IMG/VR virus record: IMGVR_UViG_3300027801_000011
Coordinates: 51,310 to 115,309 of that record
Source of the DNA: a virus
Reading direction: 5' to 3' (one strand)
DNA length: 64,000 bases
How positions within the stretch are numbered: position 1 is the stretch's first letter; each line of letters begins with the position of its first letter. A model generated the notes under the pieces. It saw only the letters and a list, made by a program, of their open reading frames with translations, was not told the origin of the DNA and ran no database searches. Below, one piece after another: positions 33,344-51,693 of this stretch. The position numbers and the translations under genes are program-made.

Positions 33344-34032
33344 CAATTGTCGAGTGGTGCAGAGAGAATGATGTTTGGTATCTTAAAATGGATATAGAGA
33401 TACCAGAAGTATGCATTAAAGAAGCACAAGCAGTATACGATGAAGGGTTCTTTGTAGATCACAGATATGGAGATGGAGATGGTTGGCGTTCTGCTGCAAT
33501 ACATAGCTTCGTCCACGAAGACGCAAAAGATACCAGCATGGGTTGGCATCATACTAAAAACCCAGATGGCCATGGCTTACACGAAAGCAAAGTTAAATGG
33601 GGGTGGACTGAAATTGCAGAAACTGCTCCAGAGACTAAGAGGTGGTTAGAAGACTTTCCACACAAGTCTTATAGACGTTTACGTTTCATGTTATTGGAAC
33701 CACAGGGACGTATAGTAGCCCACAACGATTCTAATAAAAAAAGAGATGACGAAGGAAGAACTAGAAACATTGCTGGTGCAATAAACCTTGCGTTCTACCA
33801 ACCAAAAAATTGTTATCTGAGAAGGGTAGATACTAAAGAAGAGTTGCCCTTTCAAAACTGTACAGGGTTTTGGTTCGACAATGGTGTACACCACGAAGCA
33901 TATAACGCCTCTGAAGAAAATAGATTTCACTTTATTATGCATGGTGGATTTAATTCAGAGCGTAAAGAACTTATGAAGAGGTCGCTTGCAAAGCAATTTG
34001 GCAACGATGTTCTGAAGGAAATTGATGAGTAA
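33340..34032 (+). CDS. Aspartyl/asparaginyl beta-hydroxylase family (2OG-Fe(II))
   Basis: RLRFMLLEPQGRIVAHND, FDNGVHHEAYNASEENRFHFI. Confidence 0.85.
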   Translation: MTIVEWCRENDVWYLKMDIEIPEVCIKEAQAVYDEGFFVDHRYGDGDGWRSAAIHSFVHEDAKDTSMGWHHTKNPDGHGLHESKVKWGWTEIAETAPETKRWLEDFPHKSYRRLRFMLLEPQGRIVAHNDSNKKRDDEGRTRNIAGAINLAFYQPKNCYLRRVDTKEELPFQNCTGFWFDNGVHHEAYNASEENRFHFIMHGGFNSERKELMKRSLAKQFGNDVLKEIDE

Positions 34033-35278
34033 GCTTAAAGACTTGGAGTGGTTCTGTCCTCAGCCGTTCATGAACACTGTGATGAATCACGATCTTATTC
34101 CAAAGGCATGTTGTGTGCTAAAGCAGTGGCCTGGAAATGAAATACGTGAAACTGGTAAGACATCTATTATGGAAGTTCATAATTCAGATTTTATGAAAGA
34201 TTTCCGTAAAGAATTCTTAAACGGTGGCGGGCCAATATCTGATAAATTGTGCATGGTCTGTAAGGAACAAGAAAAACATTCCTCCACAGAAAGTCATCGA
34301 CTAACGTATCTAGATAAGTTTGATGAAGAACATGGAGAGTATAGAGAACATCTAGAGGCTCTTGAGGAGTACATTGATACAGACCAAAGCGATTCTATGT
34401 ATTTGACGTTTGAATATAATGCTCCTAATAACTTCTGCAACCTCAAATGTAACATGTGTTCCCCCATGAATTCATCTACATACGCCAAAGAGAATAAAGC
34501 AATAGGTGTTTCTAATGGAGCTCTAAGGGATGAGACTTGGATCAATCTTGAAGATGATATGTCAAGATATGAGGATGTGCTTAAAAACCTTATAGAATTG
34601 AAACTAGTTGGTGGTGAGACACTTGCTCTTCCTCAAAACTATGCGATGATGGATAAAGCAATAGAGATGGGCGTGTCTAAACAAATGAGACTTGTTATGA
34701 CTACAAATGCAACGCTGACTCCGAAGATGGGTAAGCATGGCGATGTGTTTGATTATGTCCCATACTTTAAAGATTGTCAAATGAATATCTCTATAGAATT
34801 TTGGGGAGAGAAGAATAACTATCTACGGTTCCCATCTAAATGGGAAAAGATTATGAAGAATGTTAAAAAGTTTGCTAAGATGCCCAGAACTAGGATACTA
34901 TTTGCTACCTGTGTTAGTTCTCTAACGATAGGATATCTACACGAAGTAGCTATAGCTGTTGATGCTCTGATAGAAAAAGAACCACACATTTACAATAGTT
35001 TTGCAACTGGCAGTTTGGTTATTGGTGGAACCAACTTATATACTGTAACAGCAATCCCAGAGGGAATTAGAGAAGAGTATCTTGAGACAATTTATAGTCG
35101 TGCTCCCCGAAACCATGCTCCCACATTCTTGAAACTGGCCAACTATCTAACAGAGATGCCTTTTGATCAAGACCTACATAATAGAATGATGATTGACGTA
35201 GCTAAGCGTGATAAATTTCGAGGAACCGTGTTGACAGATTTGTTCCCAGAGTGGAAACCATATTATGAAAAACTTTGA
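34025..35278 (+). CDS. Radical SAM protein with N-terminal twitch/SPASM-like Cys domain
   Basis: CNLKCNMC (CxxxCxxC), GGET, TTNAT, YLRFPSKW; N-terminal FCPQPF..ACC..CMVC. Confidence 0.9.
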   Translation: MSKLKDLEWFCPQPFMNTVMNHDLIPKACCVLKQWPGNEIRETGKTSIMEVHNSDFMKDFRKEFLNGGGPISDKLCMVCKEQEKHSSTESHRLTYLDKFDEEHGEYREHLEALEEYIDTDQSDSMYLTFEYNAPNNFCNLKCNMCSPMNSSTYAKENKAIGVSNGALRDETWINLEDDMSRYEDVLKNLIELKLVGGETLALPQNYAMMDKAIEMGVSKQMRLVMTTNATLTPKMGKHGDVFDYVPYFKDCQMNISIEFWGEKNNYLRFPSKWEKIMKNVKKFAKMPRTRILFATCVSSLTIGYLHEVAIAVDALIEKEPHIYNSFATGSLVIGGTNLYTVTAIPEGIREEYLETIYSRAPRNHAPTFLKLANYLTEMPFDQDLHNRMMIDVAKRDKFRGTVLTDLFPEWKPYYEKL

Positions 35279-36839: not shown

Positions 36840-37540
36840 AGATATTAGCATTAAGAATTGGTGATAAGTATGGCCCAGAGTATGAAGACTATTTGAATAA
36901 AAAACTATCCAAATATGACATACATTGGATGCATGAGCCGTATGATGAAAGAGTTACCTTACAGTGGAATAAGATGTGGGGTATGCAGTTGGATCAAAAT
37001 GAGCCTATTTGTGTCATGGACATAGATGTTCTTCTCATGGGCGACTACGAAAGAATATTTGACTATCCTATTATGCGTGGACAATTCCTTGCAATGCCTG
37101 GCTGGTGGAGAGACACAAAGAAAGAAGGTTACTCTATCAACGGTGGATTCTTTAAGTACTATCCGAAGGACTGTAAGTATATCTACGATAAGTTTATGAA
37201 AGATATACACGGGTGGCAGAGACACTACATTGATAATGGGGTTACAAAAGGCCCTGTTAATGGAGAGCAGTACTTTGTCGAAGACTCAGTATTACAAAAA
37301 TTAGAACTTATCACATTACCCAAAGAATGGTTTACTCGCTGGGTTGTAGACTCCGATATTGTAGGTAGGAGTATGACTACATGGCAAGTACAGATCACAC
37401 GTAAGTATCGGGAGATAACAGGGAACGACTATATATTCCTTGGTGGTGAGTTTCATCCAGATATCAAATTCGTACACTTCACACACAGAAATAACAAGCC
37501 TCATGAATGGGAATACTATGAACAAATTCGTTTACGTTAG
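36836..37540 (+). CDS. GT-A fold glycosyltransferase, paralogue of 31947
   Basis: ILALRIGDKYGPEY, WNK, DID (DxD), INGGF, GEQYFV, KFVHFT..NKPH. Confidence 0.8.
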   Translation: MKILALRIGDKYGPEYEDYLNKKLSKYDIHWMHEPYDERVTLQWNKMWGMQLDQNEPICVMDIDVLLMGDYERIFDYPIMRGQFLAMPGWWRDTKKEGYSINGGFFKYYPKDCKYIYDKFMKDIHGWQRHYIDNGVTKGPVNGEQYFVEDSVLQKLELITLPKEWFTRWVVDSDIVGRSMTTWQVQITRKYREITGNDYIFLGGEFHPDIKFVHFTHRNNKPHEWEYYEQIRLR

Positions 37541-38681
37541 TCATGAGTTTCGTACTCTATATCAGAGTATGTACTTCAAGAATACTCAGAAGGTCTGGGA
37601 TACTTCTTGGGTAGATGAAGACTTTAAAGAACAACTTGAATTTAAACTTCAAGAAGAACAACATATGCTTAGAAAATACACAAGGCCTCATACTGCATAC
37701 CTTAATGATATAGAAGGTGAGACTGAGCTTGTATTCAACATGAGTATGAAACATTTTGGTGAGCCCCAGAAATATGAATGGACTGCTGATCTGACAGAGA
37801 AATTTACAGACCTTCTTATGGAAAAAGCGATATCTATTAGAGACAAGGGTAGAAAAATTCAAGTATTATATTCTGGAGGAATTGACAGTTCTGCAGCACT
37901 ACTTGCTTTATATGAGGTTTGTCCTAAAGATCAGATTGAAGTTGTCATGGGAAGAACTGGCGAAGGTGGTGCTGGTTTTAGAGCTAAAGATCAGACTGAT
38001 CCTGTAAAGCAAAATCCTTGGATGTTTGATAATATTGTAAAACATTTGGATCACACATTCACTGATGATTTAAATGGTTACTGTGATCCTAGCAAATATG
38101 TGTTTGTCACAGGCAATGAAGCAGATCGTTTATTCGGGTCTACTGGTTATACTCTAATGACTCAATACTCTAAACCAGATGGTGCTGATTACCAAGAACA
38201 TTGGGGAAAGGCTCCAACTGATGAACTTGATGAAAATTGGCAATGGAACCAAAACAGGTGGTGGGGTATAACTAGGTACACATATCTTATGCAATCTTTT
38301 CGTATGATGGCAAACATTTCATGTGATAAGATTGATATGGACAACTACCAGCCCATGTTCTTTGATAGAAAGATGTTACAATTTGCTATCAATCTACATA
38401 TCCAAAAGAAACATAAGTGGTACAACTGTGGAGCCTTAGCAGATGAGAAGAAATTTAGAGATGGAAAGATGTGGATACGTGACGCTATATTTGATATAAC
38501 TAAAAATAGTTGGGTATCATATAACATGCATAAGACTATTTCATCTGCAACTGATCTTAATAAAAGGCAGTCTGTTCCTCTGCCATTGCGCTTGAAGGTG
38601 TTAGCAATAACAGAAGATGGTACAGTTGTTAATAGAAAAAATTTAATGGAATATGTCTGTAGGGAGTCTTTTACGATATGA
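37518..38681 (+). CDS. Asparagine-synthetase-like N-type ATP pyrophosphatase (PP-loop) ligase, no glutaminase domain
   Basis: YSGGIDSS and TGNEADRLFG; start set to ATG 37518 by alignment with the downstream paralogue. Confidence 0.8.
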   Translation: MNKFVYVSHEFRTLYQSMYFKNTQKVWDTSWVDEDFKEQLEFKLQEEQHMLRKYTRPHTAYLNDIEGETELVFNMSMKHFGEPQKYEWTADLTEKFTDLLMEKAISIRDKGRKIQVLYSGGIDSSAALLALYEVCPKDQIEVVMGRTGEGGAGFRAKDQTDPVKQNPWMFDNIVKHLDHTFTDDLNGYCDPSKYVFVTGNEADRLFGSTGYTLMTQYSKPDGADYQEHWGKAPTDELDENWQWNQNRWWGITRYTYLMQSFRMMANISCDKIDMDNYQPMFFDRKMLQFAINLHIQKKHKWYNCGALADEKKFRDGKMWIRDAIFDITKNSWVSYNMHKTISSATDLNKRQSVPLPLRLKVLAITEDGTVVNRKNLMEYVCRESFTI

Positions 38682-39823
38682 AAAAATTCTGCTATGTAAG
38701 TAATGATTTCAAAAATGCTTGGAGAATATTTTTTGCCAATAAGAAGATGTTATGGGATACCTCTTGGGTAGACGAATCTGTTTTGAAGAGATTCTTTGAA
38801 CTTTATAATAAAGAGAATTCTGATCTGAAGAAGTACTCTCGCCCAGCTAACTGGTATCTTAATGACCTAGAACAAAAGGATACTTATTTGTTTCCTATGG
38901 CACAATCACATTTTAACGGTGCTGGCCAGAAGTATGAATATACAGAGGGGTTGCCTTCTCTTAAAGATATCTTATTAGAGAGAGCCGCTGATATAAGGGA
39001 TCAAGGAAAACCTATTGAAATATTGTATTCTGGTGGGATAGATAGTTCAGCTGTAGTTCTTGCTTTTAATGAAGTATGTCCCAAAGATCAGCTGAAGATT
39101 TGGATGGCAGGAGATCATTGCATTACCAACAACAAAAATCTTTTTGATAAAATTGTTAGTAATTTGGAATGGGAAATGACAACAAATCTAAATGGTTGTT
39201 GTGACCCTAGTAAAAATGTATTCACATCTGGTAATGAAGCAGATAGATTGTTTGGTGCTGATGGTTACACTCAAATGATGGGACACTCAAAACGAGATGA
39301 GAATAGTAAGAACGGATATAAGATACTAGGGCCAAATGAACCACCCACTACAGATCATCCAGACAACTGGCAGTGGAACCAAGACCGATGGTGGGGTATT
39401 ACTAGTCACACATATCTAACACAGTCTTGGAGAATGTTACGTAATGTTGAATGTGATAAAATAGTTATGGATAATTTCCAGCCTTTGTTTTTTGATAAAA
39501 GAATATTACAGTATGCTATAAACATCCATATGGATGGAGAAATGAAGTGGTACAACTCTGGTCTATTGGCTGACCCTCAGAGATACAAAGAGGGCAAGAT
39601 TTGGGTAAGAAATTTTGTTTATGAAATGTCGGGCGATAAAGAATATTCTTATAATATCGGTAAGACATTAACTACTGTATCAGATATAAATGAAATGTTT
39701 AAGTTACCACTGGCTCCAGACTTTAATGTTCTTGGTGTTATGGACGATGGTACTGTTGTAAATAGAGACAATATGATGGAATATATGACCAAAGAACACA
39801 CATTGTTCTCTAATGCTATATAA
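38678..39823 (+). CDS. Asparagine-synthetase-like PP-loop ligase, tandem paralogue
   Basis: YSGGIDSS and SGNEADRLFG; colinear with 37518. Confidence 0.8.
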   Translation: MKKFCYVSNDFKNAWRIFFANKKMLWDTSWVDESVLKRFFELYNKENSDLKKYSRPANWYLNDLEQKDTYLFPMAQSHFNGAGQKYEYTEGLPSLKDILLERAADIRDQGKPIEILYSGGIDSSAVVLAFNEVCPKDQLKIWMAGDHCITNNKNLFDKIVSNLEWEMTTNLNGCCDPSKNVFTSGNEADRLFGADGYTQMMGHSKRDENSKNGYKILGPNEPPTTDHPDNWQWNQDRWWGITSHTYLTQSWRMLRNVECDKIVMDNFQPLFFDKRILQYAINIHMDGEMKWYNSGLLADPQRYKEGKIWVRNFVYEMSGDKEYSYNIGKTLTTVSDINEMFKLPLAPDFNVLGVMDDGTVVNRDNMMEYMTKEHTLFSNAI

Positions 39824-39832
39824 ATATAAATA
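39819..39832 (+). promoter_or_regulatory. Two overlapping T4 late promoters
   Basis: TATAAATATAAATA. Confidence 0.85.
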
Positions 39833-39851
39833 GAACAAGAGGAGATTAATA

Positions 39852-40196
39852 ATGGCTTTTACATTAACTACAACGTCTGTCGCAGTTAGAGATGACACAA
39901 GCACACCGTGGTTCCATGAAGTTGATAATGATGCAAGGACTGCCTTTTTAGCTTGGCGTGATACAAATTATATCGACACCAATAAAACTTCTGCATGGTC
40001 GGCTACTGAATCTGCTGATGAGACAACTCTTACTTCTGTACGACAATTTGTAGACAGGGATGGGATAAATGCATGGTTAGCGGAATCCAATGTAAAAACT
40101 CAGATGGCTGCTCGAAAAGTGTATGAAGATGCAAACGGAATTACTAGAACAGGCACAAGGATGCTTTTAGGCAGTTACCTTGCTTTCTCTGGTTAG
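39852..40196 (+). CDS. Late-expressed small protein, homologous to the C-terminal domain of the convergent kinase
   Basis: GAGGAG RBS and double late promoter; R....PW..YIDTNK..SADETTLTS..F.D..YEDANGI. Confidence 0.75.
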   Translation: MAFTLTTTSVAVRDDTSTPWFHEVDNDARTAFLAWRDTNYIDTNKTSAWSATESADETTLTSVRQFVDRDGINAWLAESNVKTQMAARKVYEDANGITRTGTRMLLGSYLAFSG

Positions 40197-40197
40197 T

Positions 40198-41106
40198 TTA
40201 TTCAACAAATGATTCTATACCTTGTTCTTTATTATACTGAGACAGCAATTCTCTTCGTGCCACAATCACTGGGTCTTCTAGATAATCAATGTTGGCTGAC
40301 TTGTCTTTAAATATAGTACGAGACGTTTTTGACAATCCATCCTTAGACATCATCGTATTGGTTGTAATCATTTTGCCAGTATCTCTATATGTTTCCATAA
40401 TATGTGCTTTGTGATCTTCTGATTGCTCTGACCATTCTACATCAACACTTGGTCTAGTCTGGATCAGTATAGTCATATAACCTTTTACTTGAGCGTCAGT
40501 CATTTTCATTCGTTCAAATTTCTGTATAGCATCTGGTTCATCGTGACGCAGAAGGCCTCGCTCCTCTCGTATTCTAATAGAGTTAGCAATAGAAACTCTG
40601 TTCAATACTTCAACAACATCAATATCAATTTTCCAAGGGACATGCTTGTGGTAGTGAGTGAGCAATTCTTCTAGTCCATTCCAACCAATCCAACGGTGAA
40701 CCATTCTAAATTCCCAGTGAGGATTACATTTGGATTTTGCTTCCCAATCTATTAGTCCAGTAAGATTTCCCTGCTCATCTACAAAAATATTCTGTCTCCA
40801 CAAGTCTCCATGAATTATACACCGTTCTTCACCCAAAGGCCCTTTTAGTTCTGCTAAGTCAAACAAAGCATCTTCTATATATTCGTCTTTAGTTGCCATC
40901 GGCATTAAAGACTTTATTACAGAGTGCATTTGGTGTGGACGGATACCTTTGACTCTGAGATTGGTACTGTGTAATTCTCCCAACAAATTTCCAAGTTGCT
41001 CGTTGAATTTACGACTAGGCATTATAGGCCCACCCTTACCATAAGTATGAGCGAGCTGTTCGCCTGGCACGTGCTGGCCCTTTATCATTTGATCTAAAGT
41101 AACCAT
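40198..41106 (-). CDS. APH/choline-kinase-like phosphotransferase fused to an approximately 95-aa domain
   Basis: Brenner motif IIHGDLWRQNIFVD and GLIDWE; LGNLLGELH. Confidence 0.85.
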   Translation of the reverse strand: MVTLDQMIKGQHVPGEQLAHTYGKGGPIMPSRKFNEQLGNLLGELHSTNLRVKGIRPHQMHSVIKSLMPMATKDEYIEDALFDLAELKGPLGEERCIIHGDLWRQNIFVDEQGNLTGLIDWEAKSKCNPHWEFRMVHRWIGWNGLEELLTHYHKHVPWKIDIDVVEVLNRVSIANSIRIREERGLLRHDEPDAIQKFERMKMTDAQVKGYMTILIQTRPSVDVEWSEQSEDHKAHIMETYRDTGKMITTNTMMSKDGLSKTSRTIFKDKSANIDYLEDPVIVARRELLSQYNKEQGIESFVE

Positions 41107-41777
41107 TCTTCTATCTCCTTGTAATTCGTAAATATTTCAGAATAATCTGGATAAGGTATTACTCCATCCTTATCTAATTCTTCATATGTAACAACAGTAT
41201 GCTCAAGTCTGGACATAAGCATGTTTGTGAATTCTTCTCTTGCCTTGTATTTATGCATCTGCTCGATTGAACCTGTAAAGGAATGTGGTTCTGGGGTTGT
41301 TCTCCATTCATAATTATACGTACAAAATTCTCTTGGAGCAGGATATCCAGGCATACTACAAAACATGGCCGTTTGTTCAAAACAAAAATGAGATACTTTA
41401 TCGTGTTGTTGAAACCAAATTAGAGTGAAATCTTTCAGTATTTTCTCAGCAATGTCAAGTCTCTTTTCTACAGGAAGCTTCCATTTCTTGGGGGTATTGG
41501 TTAATTGTAATGGCATACACTTAACAACATATGGTAGGGGGAAATTGTGGAGATGATTTAGACGCACACGCATTTCAATATCTGTTAACAAATCTTCATT
41601 AACATTCCAATTAATATCCACAGTCTTAGTTTTAAGCTCTGATTTTAGTTGGAGATTAACCATTTTGTTTCGGCCAAACCATTCATTACCATTTACTAGG
41701 TCTTTGTCTTTAGCAAACTGCTTAAGAAAATAGTAAGAACCAGAACGGGGAGTACAGACGATGCAATATTCACTCAC
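41094..41777 (-). CDS. Sulfotransferase-fold (P-loop, Stf0-like) protein
   Basis: IVCTPRSGSYYF 5'-PSB-like loop, NEWF, VVKCMP and VTYEEL. Confidence 0.7.
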   Translation of the reverse strand: MSEYCIVCTPRSGSYYFLKQFAKDKDLVNGNEWFGRNKMVNLQLKSELKTKTVDINWNVNEDLLTDIEMRVRLNHLHNFPLPYVVKCMPLQLTNTPKKWKLPVEKRLDIAEKILKDFTLIWFQQHDKVSHFCFEQTAMFCSMPGYPAPREFCTYNYEWRTTPEPHSFTGSIEQMHKYKAREEFTNMLMSRLEHTVVTYEELDKDGVIPYPDYSEIFTNYKEIEEWLL

Positions 41778-42376
41778 TCAAACCACCCTTTAATCTCTTC
41801 AATATTTTCAAATTTCTTTTCATAGTCTATGCCCATCTTAATTGTTAACACAGTTTGCACAGTGTTATCAACCTCTAATCCATACTGCTCTTGTAGATGA
41901 GCAAGAGTACTTAAAGGATCATCTAGAAAATTCTCAAACGCTACTAGAGCTCCTTCATTGTGAGTATAATAGAAATCCCAGAACTGTTCTAGCTTAGTCA
42001 TAAACCTATCATATTCTTCTTTGGTAGCTATGAGACTATTATCTTTAATCTCTGGCCTCTCAGATGCGTAATGAATGTGGTTGACTTTTGTTCGTAAACG
42101 TGTTATATGACTCAAAAATTGTGATAGTACGTCTTTTCTATACAACCAGATACAGGGAAATCCACTAATCATTTCCCCGAAGTGTTGATCTTCTGGTAGG
42201 TAGTGGGGAAGGATTTTAAGAAGGTGTGGTTGTGTTGCCCAGTTCTGCTCATCTATATCTTTATAGTCATTCTTCTTTAGCCATGAGGCAGGGTCATATA
42301 GTCCGAAGGTGTTGCAAAGGAACCTACGGAAATACGTGCTACCACTCCTAGACGTTGCAATTAACCCTATTCTCAT
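41774..42376 (-). CDS. Sulfotransferase-fold (Stf0-like) protein
   Basis: MRIGLIATSRSGSTYF, LYRKDVLSQFLS and FENFL; start set to ATG 42376. Confidence 0.75.
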   Translation of the reverse strand: MRIGLIATSRSGSTYFRRFLCNTFGLYDPASWLKKNDYKDIDEQNWATQPHLLKILPHYLPEDQHFGEMISGFPCIWLYRKDVLSQFLSHITRLRTKVNHIHYASERPEIKDNSLIATKEEYDRFMTKLEQFWDFYYTHNEGALVAFENFLDDPLSTLAHLQEQYGLEVDNTVQTVLTIKMGIDYEKKFENIEEIKGWFE

Positions 42377-42381
42377 GTACC

Positions 42382-42389
42382 TATATATA
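42382..42389. promoter_or_regulatory. Palindromic TATATATA, putative bidirectional late promoter
   Basis: The only element in the 16-bp gap between divergent ATGs 42376(-) and 42393(+). Confidence 0.55.
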
Positions 42390-42392
42390 ACT

Positions 42393-42866
42393 ATGAAAGT
42401 TATTGAATCTACATTCGAGGAAGTGTTTCCTGTCTGGCGTGACAGACTGTGGCCCAATAGGATTAGTGCAATTGAACCTATGAGTAGTCTGTGCTGGAGG
42501 CAACCAAAAGATATAATAAAGGACAGTTCGATATTCGATAAGTATGTCCCCAGTTTCTTTGCTTTGAAGATAGATGATGAAATTGTTGGAGTGAATAGTG
42601 GATTTAAAACAAGTGAGAAAGTTTATCGTTCTAGAGGATTGTGGGTAAGTGAACAACATAGAGGTAGGGGATTTGGCCAACTTCTTTTGTTACAAGCAAT
42701 AGTTCAAGGTAAAAGCGAAGACTGTCATTGGATATGGAGTATGCCACGAAAAACCGCTTTGGGGTCTTACGAGAAGGTAGGATTCAAAAAAAGAGGTAAG
42801 TGGATAGACCAAAAGGTAGAATTTGGGCCCAATTGTCTGGCTACCCGCCAGATAATATATAAATAG
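42393..42866 (+). CDS. GNAT acetyltransferase
   Basis: YRSRGLWVSEQHRGRGFGQLLL acetyl-CoA motif A and YEKVGF; start ATG 42393. Confidence 0.88.
   Translation: MKVIESTFEEVFPVWRDRLWPNRISAIEPMSSLCWRQPKDIIKDSSIFDKYVPSFFALKIDDEIVGVNSGFKTSEKVYRSRGLWVSEQHRGRGFGQLLLLQAIVQGKSEDCHWIWSMPRKTALGSYEKVGFKKRGKWIDQKVEFGPNCLATRQIIYK
42858..42865 (+). promoter_or_regulatory. T4 late promoter
   Basis: TATAAATA upstream of gp13. Confidence 0.85.
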
Positions 42867-50391: not shown

Positions 50392-51693
50392 TTAAAACCA
50401 CACGAATATAAACGGCATTATATAGAGGGGCCAAGCAATAAACATAGAAGTTATTGCGGTTCTGATAGGATTAGCGCCTGCTATCTTTGCCGCAGTAAAA
50501 GATGATAATGCGACAGGTGGAGTTATCATCGACAACACCCCAAAATACAATACAAACATATGTGCCCAGATTTCAGTGATTCCAGCATCTACTAGAGTTG
50601 GTGCTGCTACGATTGCTACAATAAGGTATGTAGAACTAGTCGGCATACCCATTCCAAGTATTATACACAATATTGCGACTAATGTCAAGAGAAAAAACGT
50701 ATTACCTCCAGATGCTACATTAAGTATAGATGTAATATGAAAACTAAGTCCAGTTTGATCCATTATCCCTATTATAAGACCGATGGCCGCAGATAGTATA
50801 ATAAGACCATACATGCTATCAGCGATAGGGGATACCGAAGCCGTTTTTTTAAAATCCCCTGCCATTGAAATTCTTCCTTTAGGAACTGAACAGAACAGCA
50901 CTGTATAGAACAATACTGCTGGTACAAGTGCCGAGAGTGCCACTGTCCAATAAGATACTTGAAGTATTTCTGCCATGAGAAATGCAGCTGCGCCCATAAC
51001 GGGGGGCATTAGTTGACCACCCGTGGAAGCAACTGCTTCATATGCAGCTGCTTTGTGTTTTTTATATCCACATTGAATCATTAGGGGTATTGTGAGTTGC
51101 CCTGTACTCATTACATTAGCTACAGCACTACCAGAGACACTACCAAATACTGCTGAGGAAAGGATTGCTACCTTGCCGGGCGATTGAACATGTTGTAAGA
51201 TAAATTTGATAATGTAGTCTATAATTCCAAATCTTACCAAGAATTGTCCAGCAAGAACAAATAAGAATACAATACCACACATAATAGACATTGACATACC
51301 AAGCATAGCGGTGTTATCTATAACGATATGTGATATTATATCATAATAATTCCTATCTGTCAAGAGGGGAAATGAAAGAAAACACATTAATATTATGCCG
51401 AACGCTTTGCCGCTTGTCTTAAAGCAAGCATAAACAACGAGCAAACAGAGAGGTATTGATATAAAGTTTAACAGAGTTTTTTCATAATTTGCGTATTCTG
51501 TTAGATATGGATATGCAAACCACATAGCCACACCCATAGAAACTAGTAGTAGACTATATCGTTTGTAAGCGTGTCCTAGAGCTGTGAATAGTATCAGAAC
51601 GAACCACTGCTCATCAAAGGTAGGGTATCCAACATAGAAATCTATGTCAGATACGCTTACCAATAGAAAGAGGGGTAGTAAAAAGTTAGTCAA
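50392..51693 (-). CDS. TRAP transporter fused permease (TAXI-type DctQM), shortened
   Basis: SAVFGSVSGSAVANV.STG..TIPLM, EAVASTGGQLMPPVMGAAAFLMAE, ILGMGMPT..Y, AHMFVLYFG.LS.ITPPVA. Confidence 0.9.
   Translation of the reverse strand: MTNFLLPLFLLVSVSDIDFYVGYPTFDEQWFVLILFTALGHAYKRYSLLLVSMGVAMWFAYPYLTEYANYEKTLLNFISIPLCLLVVYACFKTSGKAFGIILMCFLSFPLLTDRNYYDIISHIVIDNTAMLGMSMSIMCGIVFLFVLAGQFLVRFGIIDYIIKFILQHVQSPGKVAILSSAVFGSVSGSAVANVMSTGQLTIPLMIQCGYKKHKAAAYEAVASTGGQLMPPVMGAAAFLMAEILQVSYWTVALSALVPAVLFYTVLFCSVPKGRISMAGDFKKTASVSPIADSMYGLIILSAAIGLIIGIMDQTGLSFHITSILNVASGGNTFFLLTLVAILCIILGMGMPTSSTYLIVAIVAAPTLVDAGITEIWAHMFVLYFGVLSMITPPVALSSFTAAKIAGANPIRTAITSMFIAWPLYIMPFIFVWF

Follow-up and report, generated by a model that had tools for sequence, protein, structure and literature searches.

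A barrel-fold domain, free and fused to a short APH-like kinase, in a T4-like marine phage

Why should a phage carry one small domain twice, once as a free protein and once as the C-terminal part of a kinase whose gene runs head-on into that of the free copy? This question is raised by a stretch of 64,000 nucleotides (hereafter the window; positions 51,310 to 115,309 of the IMG/VR virus record IMGVR_UViG_3300027801_000011), in which the open reading frame (ORF) for a 114-aa protein, P0001, converges with that of a 302-aa APH-like kinase, P0002, so closely that the single base 40197 separates the two stop codons. An earlier, sequence-only reading had aligned the free protein by eye with the last 95 or so residues of the kinase. 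It had proposed that the domain is a scaffold, carrier or substrate onto which the fused copy docks the kinase, thus giving a pathway an organising hub. Our analysis shows that P0001 and the C-terminal part of P0002 (residues 210-302) are indeed old paralogues belonging to one domain family.

One domain family, free and fused

Compared directly, the two copies are barely recognisable as relatives. BLASTP between the two window proteins gave a best E value of 1.9 and no match in which the C-terminal domain was paired with the free protein. Smith-Waterman and semi-global alignments of the free protein with the C-terminal 95 aa of the kinase reached z scores of 2.4-2.8, which were equalled by 16-23 of 1000 shuffles; the same shuffle test against the N-terminal part of the kinase gave a z score of about 0. 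The alignment made by eye is therefore not significant for the pair alone, but at the level of profiles the homology it pointed to is decisive. An exhaustive phmmer search with P0001 against 1.84 billion representative sequences yielded 20 matches, 17 of them free proteins of 73-134 aa. A hidden Markov model (HMM) built from 15 free members, with both window sequences excluded, matched residues 216-299 of P0002 with 59.3 bits (E 2e-14 at Z = 1e6) and the fused relative P0005, which comes from another metagenome, with 51.9 bits. Searches with tblastn told the same story, since either window copy found the same small ORFs in related contigs; one of these, at positions 4625-4879 of contig L002, was matched with E 7e-14 by the kinase tail and with E 1e-4 by the free protein. 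Three long proteins, P0014 (1272 aa), P0019 (829 aa) and P0028 (651 aa), were considered as tandem-domain forms and rejected as false positives, being low-complexity repeat proteins.

The family diverges fast, its members sharing 20-45% identity. In a multiple alignment the common motifs are an arginine that ends strand 1 and is invariant, (Y)xDTGK, S-x-D-G-L-T-x-T and Y-x3-N-G-I.

The predicted structures of the two copies agree with the profile match. An AlphaFold model of P0001, computed from the family alignment, had a mean predicted local distance difference test score (pLDDT) of 89, a predicted template modelling score (pTM) of 0.78 and the order beta-alpha-beta-beta-alpha-alpha-beta, with strands (E) and helices (H) at E4-12, H27-41, E46-53, E59-66, H69-77, H79-94 and E98-107. 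The elements of the fused copy follow in the same order: E210-217, H230-241, E246-253, E259-266, H269-277, H279-295 and E298-301. In an exhaustive VIA search of PDB representatives the free copy was closest to 1lq9_A (ActVA-Orf6; Z 9.5), to 2od6_A, a marine 'dimeric ferredoxin-like' protein (Z 9.3), and to 4zos_A (Z 9.2). The best solved match of the fused copy was likewise 1lq9_A, with 92 residues aligned at a root-mean-square deviation of 2.4 Å. Dimeric alpha+beta barrel proteins (ABM, Dabb, EthD, LsrG, SnoaB and IsdG) occupied the top of the VIA and Foldseek lists throughout, and Foldseek E values for the free copy were 6e-4 to 5e-3. The sequence-only reading had guessed at a dimeric alpha-beta barrel, and AlphaFold, VIA and Foldseek together support that guess as to the type of fold.

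With the ABM/Dabb superfamily (ActVA-Orf6, SnoaB, Dabb, EthD, LsrG, IsdG; PF03992) both window copies share a ferredoxin-like topology of about 100 aa, giving full-length structural matches at Z 8-9.5. They differ from it in having motifs of their own (R13, DTGK, S-x-D-G-L-T-x-T and Y...NGI) and in being linked to a kinase and a PP-loop ligase. No family in Pfam, PHROG or NCBIfam reached its threshold with the small protein. When 37 members were compared with the families of the Pfam clan, the best matches stayed below the cut-offs (DUF1330 for 3 members, E 0.039; DUF4286 for 2, E 0.032; ABM for 1, E 0.0042). Near neighbours in BFVD and the ESM Atlas were exclusively uncharacterised viral clusters. 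The domain therefore represents a new, apparently phage-restricted family within the dimeric alpha+beta barrel superfamily.

How the two copies are related to each other was clear from a maximum-likelihood tree. The fused domains of P0002, P0005 and contig L001 formed one clade (Shimodaira-Hasegawa-like approximate likelihood ratio test, 98) nested among the free proteins, and the free copy of the window grouped elsewhere, with L010 and P0013. Since the fused domains are a single clade and the free copy belongs to a different group, the two are old paralogues and one fusion event is enough to account for the fused form.

The fusion itself is genuine and old. Its 302-aa form is intact in three separately assembled contigs, namely the window (G000), L001 and L038, and each of the latter two differs from the window gene by two codon changes that alter the protein and one or two that are silent. 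P0005 has the same architecture at 53% identity, and its fused domain, 48% identical to that of P0002, has kept all the family motifs. A lost stop codon cannot explain the fusion, because the free genes of relatives lie on the strand opposite to the kinase. For comparison we surveyed the gene context in 59 kinase-bearing contigs, which represent 34 lineages (clusters at 95% identity), 31 of them with informative flanks. That the fusion is an assembly artefact or a recent loss of a stop codon, the outcome that the sequence-only reading had itself named as fatal to its proposal, is most improbable in view of these substitutions, the distant relative, the opposite strands and the separate clade, even though 33 of the 34 lineages in the fetched contigs have a kinase of only 180-211 aa and another long form looks chimeric. 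This other form, P0004 (ENA; 497 aa, on a contig of 2031 bp), is 83% identical to the kinase over the first two-thirds, diverges abruptly at about residue 165 and continues as an autotransporter beta-domain (PF03797); it was rejected as a long form of the kinase because it is probably a chimeric assembly.

The fusion is rare: in a profile search of longer proteins, which was of limited sensitivity and returned the window cluster only, there was neither another fused kinase nor a different enzyme with the domain. A region search with residues 205-302 likewise returned only the window cluster, and both searches missed P0005. A metagenome scan with P0005 gave no match.

The kinase and its conserved module

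The virus is a T4-like myophage, whose neck protein gp14 and tail-sheath stabiliser gp15 are encoded just downstream of the gene island to which the kinase belongs. Judged by gp15, its nearest cultured relatives are Pelagibacter phage HTVC008M (61%) and Methylophilales phage Melnitz (60%). The record is 115,309 bp long, with an estimated completeness of 64%. The free gene and the kinase gene form the right-hand end of the island, which has fibre genes on one side and gp13 on the other. In pelagimyophages a 'host recognition cluster' rich in glycan- and lipopolysaccharide-type genes lies between the fibre genes and the neck genes, before gp14 (PMC7029224), and the position of the island matches that of this cluster. 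The text of the paper that described the cluster contains no sulfotransferase and, as to kinases, only an unrelated adenylate kinase, so that the module described here does not appear in it (PMC7029224). Neither the kinase nor the small protein was found in the cultured phages HTVC008M and Melnitz. The GenBank phage collection contained no homologue of the free protein, and with the kinase as query its sole match was a partial C-lobe in a Staphylococcus phage that covered 20% of the query.

The kinase matches Pfam APH (PF01636) with 42.3 bits (cut-off 23.2; E 1e-10), residues 30-139 falling on profile positions 92-212. A profile of 23 kinase homologues matched Mph(2') in the PDB with E 5.5e-11, its position 22 aligning with about residue 118, and residues 3-205 of the kinase model align with residues 76-301 of 5igh (Mph(2')-I) over 166 residues with Z 10.3. 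It shares with the APH/Mph family (PF01636; Mph(2')-I, 5igh; Mph(C)) the HGDxxxxN loop, the metal-binding Asp (DWE) and the helical substrate subdomain. The catalytic HGD..N (residues 99-106) and the metal-binding DWE (120-122) are kept, and H99, G100, D101, N106, D120 and W121 are invariant in the 23 sequences. It differs from the family in two respects, the barrel-fold domain at its C-terminus in one lineage and the want of most of the N-lobe. The kinase starts at the equivalent of about residues 74-76 of Mph(2'), and a stretch corresponding to about the first 73 residues is absent. In canonical APH/Mph enzymes this stretch accounts for most of the N-lobe, roughly its first two-thirds, and bears the glycine-rich loop, helix C and the strand with the nucleotide-binding Lys. 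The full two-lobed kinase fold, complete with an N-lobe that binds nucleotide, was thus not found. Because the kinase is equally short in all 33 unfused lineages, the truncation must be regarded as a conserved state of the family and not as damage.

In the survey the genes follow a recurrent order. gp15, gp14 and gp13 are followed by a GNAT gene and then, reading towards the kinase, by sulfotransferase-like gene 2, sulfotransferase-like gene 1 and the kinase. On the opposite strand beyond the kinase come one or more small-protein genes, one or more ligase-family genes and genes for proteins of 234 aa and 524 aa. A small gene, in one to three copies, was found within 3 kb of the kinase in 28 of the 31 informative lineages, in three different geometries. 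In 17 lineages it abuts the 3' end of the kinase gene and is convergent with it; in 3 it lies about 650 nt downstream of the kinase; and in 8 it lies 2.1-2.8 kb upstream, just past the two sulfotransferase-like genes. It is locally absent from the visible flanks of 3 lineages (L015, L018 and L028), and in the remaining 3 the flanks are too short to tell. The copy number thus varies from 0 to 3 through lineage-specific tandem duplications. The gene immediately upstream of the small gene almost always belongs to the PP-loop ligase family. The module of a GNAT gene, two sulfotransferase-like genes, kinase, small protein and ligase(s) is conserved in pelagimyophage-like marine T4 phages.

Three tandem copies of the small gene were seen at L019:4536-5834, L032:641-1559 and L058:924-1863, all on the minus strand. 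The third copy in L019 encodes 208 aa and has an insertion within the domain.

Expression signals and neighbouring enzymes

The features of the locus are listed in Table 1. The positions of the two ORFs, the gap of 1 bp between them, the doubled TATAAATA and the GAGGAG site were all present as the sequence-only reading had described them. So was the placement of the free gene directly after the ligase pair, the gene beginning 29 nt past the stop codon of the second ligase-like gene. The TATAAATA pair overlaps that stop codon. The octamer occurs 12 times in the window, as against 6.0 expected, and none of 100 shuffles reached 12; in 8 related contigs, too, it precedes the small gene by 23-34 nt. 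These observations support a putative late-type promoter of its own for the free gene and for its counterparts in at least 8 relatives. Between positions 39600 and 43000 neither sigma-70-like promoters nor terminators gave a signal above chance. The hydrophobic tail RMLLGSYLAFSG of the free copy, which ends in ...YLAFSG, is absent from the other family members.

Table 1. Features of the kinase and small-protein locus (positions in the window unless a contig is named)
Feature	Position	Strand	Remarks
Kinase ORF P0002	40198..41106	-	302 aa
Kinase core, residues 1-199	40510..41106	-	APH/Mph-type C-lobe and hinge; Pfam APH match
Linker, about residues 200-209	40480..40509	-	pLDDT <50 at residues 202-206
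Fused C-terminal barrel-fold domain, residues 210-302	40201..40479	-	HMM match of 59 bits; pLDDT 83-94 over residues 210-301; 1lq9_A Z 9.1
Free protein P0001	39852..40196	+	ORF, 114 aa; residues 3-107 form the predicted ferredoxin-like barrel-superfamily domain
Two overlapping T4-type late-promoter consensus octamers TATAAATA	39819-39826, 39825-39832	+	Read in the sequence
Shine-Dalgarno-like GAGGAG	39839..39844	+	7-nt spacing to the ATG; seen in the sequence
Hydrophobic C-terminal tail of the free copy, ...RMLLGSYLAFSG, residues 101-114	40152..40193	+	Lineage-specific; pLDDT 46-68
Sulfotransferase-like paralogue 1	41094..41777	-	13-nt overlap of its stop with the kinase start; synteny kept in all related loci
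Sulfotransferase-like paralogue 2	41774..42457	-	First gene of a three-gene minus-strand operon; start possibly 42382
Two tandem PP-loop (SGGIDS) ligase-like paralogues	37440..39823	+	Directly upstream of the free gene
SGGIDS-less ligase paralogues	L029:1757-2464, L032:1662-2441, L034:1662-2387, L058:1854-2627	-	PP-loop replaced
Cytidylyltransferase-like/APS-kinase-like pair	L002:4884-5566, L023:4858-5555, L015:4611-5386, L018:2941-3647, L028:4539-5218	-	

Upstream of the kinase, two genes with a 4-nt overlap encode paralogues (hhalign probability 99.6%, E 7e-25) with an invariant P-loop-like xTxRSGS motif. Paralogue 2 matched two Pfam families, both below threshold: Sulfotransfer_3 (PF13469; E 2e-4, 22.1 bits against a cut-off of 27) and Stf0 (PF09037; E 3.5e-4, 20.6 bits against 22). 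Sub-threshold matches to Sulfotransfer_3 were also obtained with 3 of 10 homologues, and the PDB match had E 0.76. Because the assignment is based on sub-threshold matches, we call both genes sulfotransferase-like. An upstream gene was also considered as the supplier of the missing N-lobe of the kinase. This was rejected, as the two upstream proteins align end to end and leave no extra domain.

In the ligase-like pair the PP-loop SGGxDS is well kept, S118, G119, G120, D122 and S123 being invariant in 13 sequences of the family. The pair had no Pfam match at E 0.01 and no PDB match at E 0.1, and its match to the asparagine synthase family TIGR01536 (E 0.029) gave 13 bits, far below the cut-off of 267. 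The pair represents an unclassified PP-loop family. L029, L032, L034 and L058 carry, directly upstream of the small genes, a shortened ligase paralogue without SGGIDS (it reads, for example, DEAWGPS), which looks like a catalytically dead copy kept for binding.

Some relatives carry in addition an overlapping pair of genes, one for a mini cytidylyltransferase-like protein (110-122 aa) and one for a P-loop protein of about 150 aa resembling adenosine 5'-phosphosulfate (APS) kinase. In L002 and L023 the small gene is separated from the ligase by this pair, which in L015, L018 and L028 directly follows the kinase; the mini cytidylyltransferase-like gene of L028 shows a faint echo of ATP sulfurylase. 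Together with the sulfotransferase-like paralogues this pair suggests a phage-encoded supply of 3'-phosphoadenosine 5'-phosphosulfate (PAPS) for sulfation. The pair is missing from the 115-kb record from which the window is taken; in this record, which is 64% complete, there was no APS kinase.

A further ORF of the window, of 418 aa (34022-35278, plus strand), matched the twitch-domain radical SAM family NF033640 of NCBIfam over its full length (234 bits; cut-off 170). A radical SAM protein is also present in the L023 version of the module.

Partner, enzyme or bystander

What, then, does the small protein do? The reading that we favour, with a probability of roughly 0.4, is that it serves the kinase and the ligase as an abundant partner, substrate or carrier and is tethered in cis in the fused lineage. 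It would pair stoichiometrically with the kinase, probably with the ligase too, and would most likely be what these enzymes act on, or the carrier of what they act on, made in excess from its own late promoter. The exposed loop motifs (DTGK, the S-x-D-G-L-T hairpin, Y...NGI and the invariant R13) could provide a recognition or acceptor surface. In the fused lineage, made up of the window, two near-identical contigs and P0005, one paralogue has joined the C-terminus of the kinase by way of a flexible linker, a second and different paralogue having stayed free. The fused kinase, holding one copy in cis, might then contact the free one by the barrel-type dimer interface that is usual for this fold; docking by hetero-oligomerisation of the two copies, as the sequence-only reading had it, seems plausible. 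The wider module would constitute a tailoring pathway of sulfation and phosphorylation.

Several observations argue for a partner of this kind. Because the small gene probably has its own late promoter inside an array of enzyme genes, and because its copy number varies, its product may well be needed in larger amounts than the enzymes and be handled by them. The same is suggested by its rapid divergence around conserved polar residues, most of them borne on loops, and by the constant company of a ligase-family gene and the kinase. Fusion of two genes is a well-known mark of proteins that are coupled physically or functionally, and so supports a partnership with the kinase. We further count in favour of this reading the homology and shared fold of the two copies, the linkage in 28 of 31 lineages, the PAPS-supply-like genes of relatives, that the C-terminal placement of the fused domain leaves the domain's own C-terminus free, and that the tightest neighbour of the small gene is a ligase-family gene, which in some lineages has lost SGGIDS.

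A possible parallel is offered by LysW systems, in which a small acidic carrier protein is served by an ATP-dependent ligase (LysX) and a kinase (LysZ); LysW is zinc-ribbon-like and its ligase belongs to the ATP-grasp type. Here, too, the gene for a small protein lies beside a ligase-like gene and a kinase gene, and many members of the family are acidic-tailed. About half of 56 distinct small-family sequences end in an acidic-then-hydrophobic [ST]xE[EDT][VIT]-COOH, and in 22 of the 56 two or more of the last five residues are acidic, while the fused copies end in SFVE or TFIE. A strict acidic C-terminal acceptor motif was not found. The fold here is of barrel type, however, the ligase is a PP-loop protein and the acidic tail is not universal, so that the likeness to LysW is one of analogy only.

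A number of points weigh against the favoured reading. R13 is the sole invariant residue of the family, K45 and S54 each being missing in some members, and the acidic tail is missing from the free copy of the window itself; it is therefore impossible to point to one acceptor site common to all. Late expression of the free gene is deduced from consensus motifs. The substrates of the closest kinases are small molecules such as macrolide sugars and aminoglycosides rather than proteins, and most characterised proteins of the barrel fold are enzymes or binders of small ligands, not substrates. The full-length model of the fused protein (pTM 0.52) has a low-confidence linker and gives no confident packing or docking geometry. 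Finally, L015, L018 and L028 have kept the short kinase, with no small gene in their visible flanks. The sequence-only interpretation thus survives as regards a single family, the barrel fold, a genuine fusion and a putative late-type promoter. Its organising hub is not supported, since the domain was found attached to the kinase only, and in one lineage, and since three kinase lineages have no small gene nearby.

Some of the same points lead to the strongest alternative, in which the small protein is an enzyme or a ligand-binding subunit of a small-molecule pathway, probably one that tailors sugars. Isomerases, mutarotases and cofactor-free oxygenases are candidates, with a step directly preceding or following that of the kinase; the fusion would then channel an intermediate, and the free paralogue would complete a dimeric barrel. 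All structural neighbours are enzymes of the ABM/Dabb type, among them LsrG, which acts on the product of a kinase, and the rhamnose mutarotase YiiL. As O-phosphotransferases the nearest kinases act on small molecules, the conserved polar residues (R13, D/T/G/K 42-45, S54, D56, Y91 and N95) could line an active site, and pelagimyophage islands at the same position are rich in glycan genes (PMC7029224). Against an enzyme stand the putative late promoter dedicated to one gene inside an array of enzyme genes, the copy number of 0-3 and the fast divergence of the family. Its conserved residues, judged from secondary structure, lie mostly in loops at the ends of strands and helices, and no member reaches the threshold of any ABM or Dabb family in Pfam. 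On balance we regard an enzymatic or ligand-binding role as doubtful, though it is the main rival of the favoured reading.

An elaboration of the favoured reading would make the barrel protein a new protein carrier or acceptor for an entire tailoring line, the modified group being on the protein or tethered to it, served in turn by the PP-loop ligase, the N-lobe-less kinase and the sulfotransferase-like enzymes with phage-supplied PAPS, the kinase being active only when clamped on to it. Taken as a whole, this scheme is unlikely.

The short kinase itself invites another explanation. In the toxin system HipBST the kinase HipT lacks an N-terminal subdomain, to which the small protein HipS corresponds, and here as well a truncated protein of kinase fold is encoded beside a protein of about 100 aa. 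The barrel protein might accordingly sit over the cleft of the C-lobe, in trans or, in the fused lineage, in cis, and replace the N-lobe by supplying nucleotide-binding residues. About the first 73 residues of Mph(2') lack an equivalent, yet HGD..N and DWE are kept, and the companion has the size of an N-lobe, is tightly linked and is fused in one lineage; its frequently conserved Lys in DTGK and its invariant Arg could be residues of the required kind. The fold of the domain nevertheless differs from that of a kinase N-lobe, as does the order of its elements; it is joined to the C-terminus of the kinase, where AlphaFold leaves it undocked; and the Lys is missing in several members. The three lineages with no small gene nearby have kinases that are just as short. 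HipBST also differs in that its kinase belongs to another family and its small protein has the fold of the missing part, and there is no sign of a toxin-antitoxin context in the phage module. A split kinase is thus improbable.

It is hardly more attractive to see in the small protein a structural or accessory component, abundant late in infection and without functional tie to the kinase, so that their adjacency would reflect island architecture and the fusion a neutral accident. The location in the structural late region beside gp13-gp15, the putative late promoter and the kinase lineages without a small gene would fit such a protein, but its linkage to within 3 kb of the kinase has survived rearrangement into three geometries, the fused domain has been kept with all its motifs from P0002 to P0005, and the cultured phages HTVC008M and Melnitz, which are without the kinase, are also without the small protein.

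The phages that carry this module are relatives of the pelagimyophages, which count among the most common large phages in surface waters of the ocean, and the module, although conserved in at least 34 lineages, is entirely uncharacterised. Its kinase, a conserved C-lobe without most of an N-lobe, is an unusual object for kinase biochemistry, and the natural fusion is a hint that kinase and barrel protein work together. As an entry point the fusion could reveal what is modified late in infection, be it the virion itself, a released product or the host surface. If the scheme of a complete tailoring line on a barrel carrier were true, these abundant ocean phages would possess a carrier-dependent, protein-templated modification pathway.

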